Position numbers and translations under genes: made by a program. The notes under the pieces were generated by a model. That model was not told the origin of the DNA, searched no databases, and worked only from the letters and a program-made list of their open reading frames with translations. Shown here one piece after another: positions 62,318-63,020 of a DNA stretch of 64,000 nt (position 1 is its first letter; each line of letters begins with the position of its first letter). The stretch is from Staphylococcus phage RQ1, in the sequence record PV344601.1. One strand, given 5' to 3'.

Positions 62318-62582
62318 CTATAATTCTACGTTTGGAACCTCTGACTCTGCTTCTGGAACATCTGACGGGTCACTAGGGTCTAGTGTAGTCGTCGTTGTAG
62401 TTGTTGTTCCCTCTGTTGTAGTCGTGGTCGTGGTCGGCTGAGTTGTAGTTGTTGTAGTTGTCGGCTCAGTCGTCGTAGTCGTAGTAGTTGGAGCAACTGT
62501 CGTTGTTGTAGTCGTTGTAGGAGCTACAGTTGTCGTAGTTGTCGTTGTACTACTTGTAGTCGTTGTAGTGGTTGGCTTAGGG
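62318..62582 (-). CDS. Thr-rich C-terminal extension of the major tail protein, reached by +1 frameshift at the CCC.UAA shifty stop (62577..62582)
   Basis: +1 frame reads ..P KPTTTTTTSSTTTTTTTVAPTTTTTTTVAPTTTTTTTEPTTTTTTTQPTTTTTTTEGTTTTTTTTLDPSDPSD..VEL-stop. That frame has no ATG or RBS of its own. Confidence 0.5.
62330..62560 (-). repeat. tandem roughly 30-nt repeats encoding (T7-X-X-P) units
   Basis: actacaac/gacgac periodicity. TTTTTTTVAP, TTTTTTTEP and TTTTTTTQP units. Confidence 0.65.
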
Positions 62583-63020
62583 AGTAGTTGTTGTAGTTGT
62601 AGTTGAACCGTCCCCAGCAATATTTTCAAACAACGCTTCTAAAGCTGCACGTTTATCTTCACCACGAGCTGTTGCATAAGTGTTACCATTAGCATCTGCT
62701 ACGAATTGACCTTCTAATTCATCTGCTTCTGGTTCTGATAATTCGTCTTCATTTGTTGCTAAGTTTTGTTCGTCTAAACGGAACTTACCTTTTAATAATG
62801 CGAAGAAGATAGGTTGACCATCTAATGCTTCTGATTCCATTAAAACACCAGCGTATGGAGGAGTTGTACTTTCCCCAACTAACATGATGCCATCTTCGTT
62901 TTCTTTACGTCCTAATAATTCAGCTGCTAAAGCTTCTGTCATATCAAGAATAGATAATGTAAGTTCTACTGAACCTGTACCTTTTTGAGCTACATAATAC
63001 GCTACGTTTGATGCGTACAC
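62577..63020 (-). CDS. major tail (tube) protein, 3' exon. The upstream exon lies beyond the window and is separated by a group I intron
   Basis: Position just upstream of the G/GT chaperones. The frame closes immediately upstream of 63020 (TGA). Intron core homolog at 63030-63330. C-terminus ..GDGSTTTTTTTP-stop. Confidence 0.5.
   Translation of the reverse strand: MYASNVAYYVAQKGTGSVELTLSILDMTEALAAELLGRKENEDGIMLVGESTTPPYAGVLMESEALDGQPIFFALLKGKFRLDEQNLATNEDELSEPEADELEGQFVADANGNTYATARGEDKRAALEALFENIAGDGSTTTTTTTP

Follow-up and report, generated by a model that had tools for sequence, protein, structure and literature searches.

Organization of the tail-tube locus

The window analyzed in this study, a single stretch of 64,000 nucleotides, belongs to a Staphylococcus siphovirus of the 6ec/SEP9-like (Sextaecvirus) kind, and the features considered here lie close to its end on the minus strand: a tail-tube protein (TTP) gene split by a group I intron, a threonine-rich reading frame that continues in the +1 register past the TTP stop codon, and the gene of a putative glycosyltransferase. 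The last TTP exon (62580-63024) runs in the zero frame through a CCC codon, and its product ends in ..ENIAGDGSTTTTTTTP. It matches Pfam PF04630 (Phage_TTP_1; E = 6e-10, profile positions 60-190 of 199) and the phrog_88 major tail protein (E = 2e-37), and shares 94% identity with residues 50-189 of the TTP of phage SA2. An internal exon (63331-63452, with an approximate 5' limit) encodes ..AKFFIYDKDDAVVNTHVVEGRANQGGTTEASISGLSAEAV; tblastn searches with the SA2 and 6ec TTPs place residues 4-50 at 63470-63327, and exon 1 (about MASTIGFKR) lies beyond the end of the window. A preliminary description of this DNA had treated the ORF at 62577-63020 as the tail-tube ORF; its identity as tail-tube sequence holds, but it is the last exon only and falls about 50 N-terminal residues short of the whole gene.

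The two exons in the window are separated by a group I intron of 306 nucleotides (63025-63330) that contains no ORF and splits the TTP between ..SAEAV and KVYASN... The intron is recognized by a match to Rfam RF00028 at 63076-63340 (85 bits, where the gathering score is 50; E = 3e-22), with a U ending the 5' exon and a G ending the intron, and its RNA has a folding z-score of -3.8. Removal of the intron in silico restores the TTP frame and gives a continuous translation, which is collinear with the uninterrupted TTPs of SA2, 6ec, and P0122. The intron was detected in an Rfam scan of 571 nucleotides, the negative outcome of a scan of 60000-64000 being a filter artifact; a match to EGFOA-assoc-1 in the latter scan, at 20 bits far below its gathering score of 224, is a chance match. 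The preliminary description missed both the intron-split TTP gene and the adjacent glycosyltransferase, and their recognition changes the likeliest nature of the 'flexible arm' that it had proposed for the tail.

A candidate +1 frameshift site at the end of the TTP gene

The tail-tube frame ends ACT ACT CCC TAA, in agreement with the earlier reading of this junction (ACT CCC TAA at 62577-62585, minus strand), and the proposed +1 shift site, CCC_TAA, occupies 62577-62582, with CCC at 62580-62582 and TAA at 62577-62579. In this layout a CCC proline codon lies directly 5' of a stop codon whose U makes an overlapping CCU. Across 62 long ORFs of the 64-kb window CCC accounts for 25 of 18,312 codons, or 5.5% of the proline codons, and CCT for 204 codons, or 45% of the proline codons; the TTP gene alone among these 62 ORFs ends in CCC and a stop. 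A programmed +1 frameshift at CCC_UAA is supported by comparison with related and known sequences. On the 3' side of the site we find only a weak hairpin that starts about 22 nucleotides past the stop (-14.9 kcal/mol, z = -2.2), with no strong stimulatory structure and no Shine-Dalgarno-like stimulator, so that the efficiency of any frameshift could be low. Transcriptional slippage and stop-codon readthrough were considered as other routes past the TAA and rejected, because the junction, CTCCCTAAG, contains no homopolymer and the zero frame meets a TAG eight codons after the TAA.

The +1-frame threonine extension

Entry into the +1 frame skips the T at 62579 and makes AAG (62576-62578) the first codon of an extension that spans 62318-62578. 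This frame is indeed open, as had been described, for 86 sense codons before the stop at 62318-62320 (85 further codons in the preliminary description). The extension reads KP-TTTTTTSS-TTTTTTTVAP-TTTTTTTVAP-TTTTTTTEP-TTTTTTTQP-TTTTTTTEG-TTTTTTTT-LDPSDPSDVPEAESEVPNVEL, in which the regular threonine repeats noted previously appear as six T6-8-x-x-P units followed by the acidic LDPSDPSDVPEAESEVPNVEL tail; threonine makes up 49 of the 86 residues (57%). Six-frame translation of the 64 kb yields eight runs of at least five threonines, all of them at 62384-62603. The confinement of the runs to this interval and the position of the TTP as the sole CCC-stop ORF mark the arrangement as more than a chance one. 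The extension has no match in Pfam or PHROG, and it is not a folded Ig-like or FN3 domain of the kind seen in typical members of the CCC-stop shift class. The absence of an ATG or ribosome-binding site in this frame is borne out, since the 60-nucleotide overlap holds no ATG and neither of its two TTG codons has a Shine-Dalgarno sequence.

Comparison with related phages gives insight into how the extension evolves. Differences at the first, second, and third codon positions number 7, 9, and 34 against SA2 and 3, 6, and 34 against PT1-4, and the ratio of synonymous to non-synonymous changes is 26:13 and 27:9, respectively. All insertions and deletions between relatives comprise whole codons, and the acidic, non-repetitive tail is conserved as protein. 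The third-position bias and the whole-codon indels indicate that the extension is evolving as coding sequence in the threonine frame.

The same junction in related phages

The sequence ACT ACT CCC TAA is invariant in five phage genomes, those of the window, SA2, PT1-4, PG-2021_4, and TPWB06, while the flanking threonine codons and the downstream sequence vary around it and the +1 ORFs encode 86, 72, 63, 54, and 56 residues. Neither the hosts nor the countries of origin of the five phages are the same. The junction recurs, with a 55-residue variant of the extension, in seven independent metagenome assemblies from ENA, and it is invariant in the loci L029-L036. A CCC TAG variant occurs in F1, DH5, and L037; in L037/L038 the CCC TAG, a +1 poly-Thr ORF, and the glycosyltransferase are found on an unrelated tail-tube protein. 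The two-frame arrangement is kept in lineages with 73-85% identity to one another, as well as on one unrelated backbone. Such a comparison had been suggested in the preliminary description, with threonine regions fused in frame in homologous phages as the sign of a sequencing indel. The extension lies in the +1 frame in the five genomes, the seven assemblies, and the unrelated backbone, and a search of 70 database matches for an in-frame fusion of the repeat array through the P-KP junction returned none, so the indel reading is not borne out. The longer TTPs of P0146 and P0152 that came up in this search have unrelated Ser/acidic tails.

Other relatives differ in what follows the site. In PMBT8, PT1-1, and PT94 a short in-frame T14-16 tail takes the place of the +1 array, and relatives that lack the glycosyltransferase (6ec, SEP9, and others) retain CCC TAA with a +1 ORF of 17 residues. 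This 17-residue peptide aligns with the 20-residue +1 ORF of F1 and DH5, with 39 of 20,000 shuffles scoring as well, and from this alignment the sequences suggest an ancestral CCC-stop site whose payload can be exchanged. The site would then seem to be a reusable 'socket', whose payload differs between close relatives as either a peptide of 17-20 residues or a threonine array of 54-86 residues. Since CCC TAA is kept in relatives without poly-Thr, its conservation alone is no proof of selection for the threonine payload. The published work on SA2 lists the extension as an orphan ORF with a TTG start, and in its gel, the only one published, mass spectrometry identified the capsid band alone.

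A putative glycosyltransferase linked to poly-Thr tracts

Downstream of the extension, a gene at 61355-62248 (minus strand, ATG start at 62248 after AAGGAGAG) encodes a protein of 297 residues. It was identified solely through structure prediction and a fold search, which assign it a GT8-like GT-A fold with a single Rossmann-like domain. The sequence gives no Pfam match at E ≤ 0.1, with PF01501 (GT8) included, and no NCBIfam match, and a PDB sequence-profile search with the product returned nothing. A DxD motif (D96-S97-D98) follows a beta-strand (YFFMDSDV) and is invariant in 40 diverse members of the family. H242, G245, K256, G257, and P264 are invariant as well, and may correspond to the C-terminal His metal ligand and the HxxGxxKPW-like motif of GT8 enzymes. 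The homologs form a separate family, phrog_4417, with 895 clusters at 50% identity. On the basis of the modeled fold we consider the product a putative GT8-like glycosyltransferase, and we propose that it acts on poly-Thr tracts.

The genomic linkage between this family and poly-Thr is directly observed. A tract of at least five threonines lies no more than 700 nucleotides upstream of the glycosyltransferase gene in all 45 distinct IMG/VR contexts and in 22 of 24 other contexts; L023 has no threonine tract nearby, and in bIL285 the tract is on the tail gene, 2.7 kb away. Over the 1 kb that precedes the gene, threonine tracts reach a density of 3.4 per kb, as opposed to 0.17 per kb elsewhere in the same loci. 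The gene belongs to the late structural operon, and in these 45 and 22 contexts it comes directly after a capsid or tail-tube gene that carries a poly-Thr tag; in many phages the capsid and the tail-tube protein share the same C-terminal threonine tag. Within the genus, phages with the glycosyltransferase have the threonine tract and those without it have neither, and the linkage as a whole spans unrelated phage lineages and gene orders.

The closest structural neighbors of the enzyme qualify the role that may be assigned to it, as most of these GT8-like enzymes add to glycans already in place and are not initiators of a chain on serine or threonine. In the serine-rich-repeat adhesins of Gram-positive bacteria, the GT-B pair GtfA/B begins the glycosylation, and the part of GT8 enzymes is only to lengthen the chain; one GT8 enzyme of this system is GlyE (PDB 5gvv), which acts on pneumococcal PsrP. 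The phage system differs from these adhesins in having a single glycosyltransferase, and in a putative substrate that is rich in threonine, not serine, and is a virion protein. Phage phiEf11, in which the apparent mass of the major tail protein on gels is 7-8 kDa too high, was followed up as a lead and set aside, there being no homolog of the glycosyltransferase after its tail gene.

Proposed mechanism and alternative explanations

We propose, with a probability of roughly 0.6, that a +1 frameshift adds a mucin-like, O-glycosylated arm to a fraction of the tube subunits, by way of the neighboring glycosyltransferase. After the intron has been spliced out, the tail-tube mRNA would be translated to ...GDGS-TTTTTTT-P and the ribosome would reach CCC_UAA. 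Most ribosomes would stop at the UAA and release a tube subunit of about 197 residues that already has a short T7 tag. In some, during the slow decoding of the stop codon in the A site, the peptidyl-tRNA-Pro would slip by +1 from the rare CCC onto the overlapping common CCU, and translation would continue in the +1 frame (AAG CCA ACC ...) for 86 residues, through the six T6-8-x-x-P repeats and the acidic tail. The proposed shift is that of SPP1 gp17.1/gp17.1* with another payload. The extension would be an unstructured, mucin-like arm, and the enzyme encoded immediately downstream would O-glycosylate the threonine runs of the short and the long form alike, with the 400-nm tail coated in sugars and bearing a set proportion of long glycosylated arms. 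The short in-frame T14-16 tails of some relatives, together with the T7 tag in the zero frame, imply that the long form may be dispensable.

If the frameshift were real and the threonine arm remained unglycosylated, it could act as a flexible spacer or brush, or as an adhesion or anti-aggregation element, with the glycosyltransferase modifying a different target, for example DNA or a host surface polymer such as wall teichoic acid. We think this unlikely, given that the enzyme is encoded in the late structural operon, where the gene directly before it specifies a capsid or tail protein with a poly-Thr tag in the 45 of 45 and 22 of 24 contexts described above, that gene and tract are gained or lost together within the genus, and that the same tag is found on capsid and tail within one phage; an enzyme of the host surface would not be expected to track threonine tags. 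It is less probable again that there is no efficient frameshift, such that the short T7-tagged TTP is the sole product and the +1 ORF, silent or decaying, is what remains of a threonine array that was once in frame. The zero-frame T7 tag does resemble tags that other phages carry in frame, some relatives have in-frame T14-16 tails, a strong stimulatory structure is absent, and ACN repeats read in either of the remaining frames contain hardly any stops, so that the openness of the +1 frame is by itself weak evidence. A remnant, however, would be expected to accumulate frame-breaking indels, and what we observe instead is a concentration of differences at third positions (34 of 50 and 34 of 43), an excess of synonymous over non-synonymous changes, repeat numbers that change by whole codons only, an acidic tail conserved as protein, and an arrangement kept across the 73-85% identical lineages and the unrelated backbone.

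Initiation of the threonine-repeat ORF at an internal TTG or GTG would yield a free threonine-rich peptide of about 100 residues, unfused to the TTP. The ORF listing offers a TTG at 62629 as a possible start, the SA2 and PT1-4 records annotate the threonine ORF from such a start, and F1, DH5, iLp84, Iacchus, L039, and L043 each encode a separate poly-Thr protein that has its own start. These genuine standalone proteins all have an ATG, a Shine-Dalgarno sequence, and a folded N-terminal Ig/FN3-like domain, which are absent here; the candidate TTG and GTG starts of the window lack a Shine-Dalgarno sequence and are not conserved between SA2-type and PG-2021_4-type phages, and the +1 residues upstream of the junction are an out-of-frame reading of the conserved TTP C-terminus. 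We accordingly give a free peptide very little credence. In so repetitive a region, an indel introduced by sequencing or assembly could in principle have falsely split a single in-frame ORF; the recurrence of the same junction and frame relation in five separately sequenced phages, seven assemblies, and another backbone excludes this for practical purposes, and the lack of an in-frame fusion among the 70 database matches and of a homopolymer at the junction points the same way.

Returning to the glycosylated arm, a broader reading seems to us slightly favored: that many Firmicutes phages possess a previously undescribed virion O-glycosylation system consisting of a dedicated phrog_4417 glycosyltransferase and short C-terminal poly-Thr 'glyco-tags' on the major capsid and tail-tube proteins, in which the glycosyltransferase gene directly follows one of its substrate genes. 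In the Sextaecvirus lineage of the window, an ancestral CCC-stop +1 site would deliver the long mucin-like array to a set fraction of tube subunits, and other lineages would use in-frame fusion, -1 shifts at A_AAR-stop, or separate Ig/FN3-like carriers. If true, many of the phages that infect staphylococci, enterococci, listeriae, lactococci, and lactobacilli would share the system, which would need one compact enzyme and a simple tag that is easy to recognize; about 900 clusters of 'hypothetical' proteins would gain a function, and many unannotated threonine-repeat ORFs would be explained. It would bear on phage therapy, through antibody shielding, serum half-life, and stickiness toward biofilm or mucus, and on dairy phage biology, and the tag and enzyme could be a portable system for glyco-decorating phage particles.

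Relation to known systems

Among the closest known systems is the tail-tube gene of SPP1, where CCCUAA is an experimentally established +1 site at which the rare CCC re-pairs on the overlapping common CCU (Auzat et al., 2008, as reported in PMC6316719), and where the short gp17.1 and long gp17.1* forms co-assemble at about 3:1 (PMC6316719). Both are siphovirus tail-tube genes that end exactly in CCC UAA, and the extensions are of nearly equal length, with 87 residues in SPP1 and 86 here. That of SPP1 is a folded FN3 domain, whereas the one predicted here is a low-complexity T7-x-x-P array with an acidic tail; SPP1 is not known to have an adjacent glycosyltransferase, and, unlike the SPP1 gene, the present TTP gene is split by a group I intron. 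In the tsh genes of Listeria phages PSA, A118, and A500 the +1 site is CCC_UGA (Zimmer et al., 2003; Dorscht et al., 2009, as reported in PMC5009743). As is proposed for our phage, the shift occurs on a rare CCC directly 5' of the stop of the major tail gene, in low-GC Firmicutes phages where about 5% of proline codons are CCC. The tsh gene differs in its UGA stop, in an upstream AAA codon, and in extensions that form Ig-like or other domains. The preliminary description had likened the site to PSA cps and tsh and to SPP1 gp17.1*; the likeness to tsh and to SPP1, whose CCCUAA is identical, stands in these sources, but that to cps does not, as the cps shift takes place at a CCC with a pseudoknot and without a stop (PMC5009743). 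The frameshift proposed here would be a further natural case of the rare CCC-stop +1 recoding signal. In the mainly open-access literature searched, we found no account of poly-Thr or threonine-rich phage tails, of 'prophage pi2 protein 34', or of frameshifting in Sextaecvirus, and an earlier description may exist.

Glycosyltransferases of the mycobacteriophages Che8, Corndog, and Myrna are reported to glycosylate capsid and tail-tube proteins (Freeman et al., 2023, discussed in PMC12363180 and PMC11256854). The two systems are alike in tying a phage glycosyltransferase to capsid and tail-tube proteins, here by genomic linkage. They differ in the phylum of the host, and neither a poly-Thr tag nor delivery by frameshift is described for the mycobacteriophage system in the passages of those articles covered. 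If the threonine tracts are glycosylated, phage virion glycosylation would not be confined to mycobacteriophages.

The threonine tract can also be set beside the Ig-like and FN3 decorations that phage structural proteins acquire through in-frame fusion or programmed frameshifting (Fraser et al., 2006, as discussed in PMC5009743). Both are mobile C-terminal modules of capsid or tail proteins that are attached in frame, by a +1 or -1 shift, or as a separate protein. Unlike the Ig-like and FN3 modules, the mobile unit here consists of a low-complexity threonine tract and an enzyme gene, without a folded binding domain. The mode of attachment of such modules appears to be set by how recombination happened to place them.

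The tail-tube gene and the frame beyond its stop codon

The ORF at 62577-63020 (minus strand), taken in the preliminary description for a tail-tube ORF, matches Pfam PF04630 (E 6e-10) and phrog_88 (E 2e-37). It is incomplete, being the last exon of a split gene. Its Pfam match begins only at profile position 60, and the tail-tube proteins (TTPs) of the related phages SA2 and 6ec have about 50 extra N-terminal residues; tblastn places residues 4-50 of the SA2 TTP at 63470-63327 and residues 50-189 at 63023-62604. Between these exons lies a 306-nt group I intron (63025-63330, minus strand; RF00028, 85 bits, E 3e-22), which was absent from a 4-kb Rfam scan and recovered only with a 571-nt scan. 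U ends the 5' exon and G ends the intron, and excision gives an uninterrupted reading frame. A second interruption, presumably another intron, runs on the minus strand from 63453 to 64000 and past the window end; it bears an HNH/homing-endonuclease-like ORF (63524-64000; phrog_559, E 4e-52; DUF2726-like), and because it displaces exon 1 (MASTIGFKR..), that exon falls outside the window. The TTP genes of PT1-4, F1, DH5, PMBT8, PT1-1 and PT94 are also interrupted, at positions differing from those in the window; those of SA2, 6ec and the database homolog P0122 are uninterrupted.

The gene ends ...ACT ACT CCC TAA. When the T of TAA is skipped, the +1 frame is open for 86 codons (85 in the preliminary description) up to a stop at 62318-62320 on the minus strand. 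Its product would begin with KP, continue through six T6-8-x-x-P units and then a T8 run, and end in an acidic tail LDPSDPSDVPEAESEVPNVEL; 49 of its 86 residues are threonine. When all 64 kb are translated in six frames, the eight Thr runs of at least five residues all fall inside one 220-nt stretch here, which confirms the preliminary observation.

Several observations suggest that the +1 ORF is translated. In codon-aligned comparisons, differences at the three codon positions number 7/9/34 against SA2 and 3/6/34 against PT1-4, with synonymous to non-synonymous codon changes of 26:13 and 27:9, respectively. Length differences are all of whole codons, mostly whole repeats, and the acidic non-repetitive tail is conserved at the protein level. 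The frame lacks a start of its own, as had been noted: there is no ATG upstream of the stop and no Shine-Dalgarno sequence before its TTG and GTG codons, which are not conserved across sub-lineages.

Conservation of the CCC-stop junction

Sextaecvirus phages (the 6ec/SEP9 group) share 80-84% identity with this region, and we sorted the relatives into four classes by tube-gene end, poly-Thr tract and presence of a neighbouring gene for a predicted glycosyltransferase (GT). In class A (6ec, SEP9, S-CoN_Ph13, PG-2021_46) the tube gene ends ACT CCC TAA with a 17-codon +1 ORF, and these phages have neither the GT gene nor any Thr run. Class B (the window, SA2, PT1-4, PG-2021_4, TPWB06 and loci L029-L035) has ACT ACT CCC TAA, a poly-Thr +1 ORF of 54-86 residues and the GT gene. 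Class C (F1, DH5) ends in CCC TAG with a 20-codon +1 ORF and carries poly-Thr on a separate Ig-like protein; in class D (PMBT8, PT1-1, PT94) the tube protein itself ends in T14-16, in frame, and there is no CCC-stop. Both have the GT gene.

ACT ACT CCC TAA is invariant across SA2 (host S. aureus), PT1-4 (S. gallinarum), PG-2021_4 (Mammaliicoccus sciuri) and TPWB06 (labelled 'Arcanobacterium'), while flanking Thr codons vary synonymously, the post-stop sequence differs (GCCAACC vs TGTCACT) and +1 ORF lengths in the class, including the window, are 86, 72, 63, 54 and 56 residues. The host label of TPWB06 (PQ358086) looks doubtful from its sequence and gene order, which are typical of Sextaecvirus and near the M. 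sciuri phages PG-2021_4, _67 and _68.

Seven independent ENA assemblies have the identical junction and a 55-residue +1 ORF after an uninterrupted, 97% identical tube protein of 197 residues. An unrelated tube protein in an IMG/VR contig pair (L037/L038) ends ...TTTTTTTLP, encoded TTA CCC TAG, with a four-repeat poly-Thr ORF in the +1 frame. A sequencing indel, which would leave homologs with this Thr array fused in frame, is excluded by this recurrence; such a fusion occurs in 0 of 70 database homologs. The extension is in the +1 frame throughout class B and in L037/L038, but not in every relative, being in frame in class D and a separate protein in class C. Transcriptional slippage was rejected since the region has no homopolymer, and readthrough in the zero frame would meet a second stop eight codons past TAA.

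A +1 programmed frameshift at CCC_TAA is thus the reading that the comparative evidence supports, and the codon itself is unusual. CCC makes up 25 of 18,312 codons (5.5% of Pro codons, against 45% for CCT), and among 62 long ORFs the tube gene alone ends in CCC plus a stop. A C-terminal proline slows termination and would prolong the ribosomal pause. The likeness to SPP1 gp17.1* and to Listeria PSA tsh holds: for SPP1 gp17.1, a pause on a rare CCC and re-pairing on the overlapping CCU in CCCUAA are described, adding 87 residues (PMC6316719), and tsh of Listeria phages PSA, A118 and A500 is described as shifting in the same mode at CCC_UGA (PMC5009743). The window follows the same logic, with a rare CCC overlapping CCU within CCCUAA and, as in SPP1, no strong RNA structure 3' of the site. 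Sequence comparison supports adding it to the +1 recoding sites of the SPP1/Listeria class, with a payload and a partner enzyme that are new.

The site also occurs without a poly-Thr payload. The 17-codon ORF of the GT-less 6ec-type phages encodes KNVSVSARTDSAIVDAE (6ec locus L003, 3520-3575; L026-L028), and the 20 codons of F1 (L006, 2003-2065) and DH5 (L007) encode RNPQNVRVVAESETATIFAD. Only 39 of 20,000 shuffles align as well as these two peptides, despite their differing codons. This suggests that the genus inherited the CCC-stop site from its ancestor and that the payload can be exchanged; a short frameshift peptide may be produced in the 6ec-type, F1 and DH5 phages too.

A predicted glycosyltransferase linked to poly-Thr tracts

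The neighbouring ORF (61355-62248, minus strand; 297 residues from the ATG after AAGGAGAG) belongs to phrog_4417 ('unknown function') and has no Pfam, NCBIfam or PDB sequence match. From a confident AF2 model (pLDDT 95, pTM 0.92), the product is predicted to be a GT8-like glycosyltransferase with a GT-A fold, in a sequence family of its own; Foldseek concurs, its list including A64R of PBCV-1, which glycosylates the capsid. Across 40 aligned members, D96-S97-D98, H242, G245, K256-G257 and P264 are invariant, and the family numbers 895 clusters at 50% identity. Many members (P0227-P0336) are 450-780 residues long, with the GT domain N-terminal and the C-terminal half uncharacterised; a small subgroup (P0060, P0067, P0068, P0076, P0118) bears some 70-90 residues of charged tail.

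By tblastn the gene is present in 76 phage records, with hosts in Staphylococcus, Enterococcus, Lactobacillus, Lactococcus and Clostridium. Every GT-bearing Sextaecvirus has a poly-Thr tract directly upstream, whether attached in the +1 frame, in frame or as a separate protein. What precedes the GT gene outside the genus varies: a tail gene with an in-frame Thr tag (phiFL1A; prophages of Listeria, Staphylococcus, Liquorilactobacillus and Salinicoccus), a capsid gene with a Thr tag (CHPC836, L024), a small Ig/FN3-like poly-Thr protein (iLp84, Iacchus, L039, L043, L114) or a capsid gene with the Thr array in the -1 frame (nattely, GCA AAG TAA; L021, TCA AAA TAG).

In IMG/VR, a tract of at least five Thr lies within 700 nt upstream of the GT gene in 45/45 distinct contexts (80 loci), and other contexts have an upstream tract in 22 of 24; of the exceptions, L023 has no tract, and in bIL285 the tagged gene is a tail gene at a distance of 2.7 kb. 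Upstream of the GT gene there are 3.4 tracts per kb, versus 0.17 per kb elsewhere, where tracts mostly form the C-terminus of the phage's other major virion protein. In GT-bearing phages, capsid and tube usually both end in a poly-Thr tag, often identical within a phage to the final residues (gene ends in L011, L012, L015, L018, L019, L021, L022 and L024), as with ...TTTTTTTSK in iLp84, ...TTTTAAGV in a Salinicoccus prophage and ...TTTTTTTRA in L024; the commonest tag is TTTTTTTQA (47 of 77 IMG/VR loci).

This linkage is as expected of an enzyme-substrate pair, and the mucin-like Thr array beside a predicted GT8-like enzyme indicates putative O-glycosylation of the tail tube. The tagged genes are those of the capsid and tail tube, the pair reported as glycosylated in mycobacteriophages (PMC12363180, PMC11256854). 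The window's feature would belong to a widespread module of Thr tag and predicted glycosyltransferase in Firmicutes phages, of which we found no description in the searchable literature, whose coverage is incomplete.

Other observations

Standalone poly-Thr proteins lie directly upstream of the GT gene in L006 (2093-2455), L007 (2067-2450), L011 (2120-2497), L013 (2131-2517), L039 (1430-1756) and L043 (2642-2998). They are small, with an N-terminal beta-rich domain (Ig/FN3-like by eye) followed by T7-x-x-P repeats; several carry the wrong annotation 'major tail protein', and they may be glycosylated decoration proteins. Unannotated poly-Thr ORFs straight after the capsid-gene stops of nattely (L010, 2213-2374) and L021 (about 668-810) are in the -1 frame, and their junctions resemble sites where tRNA-Lys slips -1 on A_AAR beside the stop. 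In L025 (2617-3000), ..AAC CCG TAA is followed by a long Thr array in a different frame, and an obvious slip site is absent. In PT1-4 (L002, 3218-3925), the Thr extension and the GT gene are separated by a 236-residue ORF that looks by eye like a free-standing GIY-YIG-type homing endonuclease.

The window also holds a tail assembly chaperone pair (60744-61324, minus strand): 60974-61324 is a G-like ORF (PF23857, E 4e-21) and 60744-60932 a T-like one. Reading in the -1 frame, the T frame stays open through the end of G, and the homologous pair in the 6ec record is annotated as a joined frameshift CDS.
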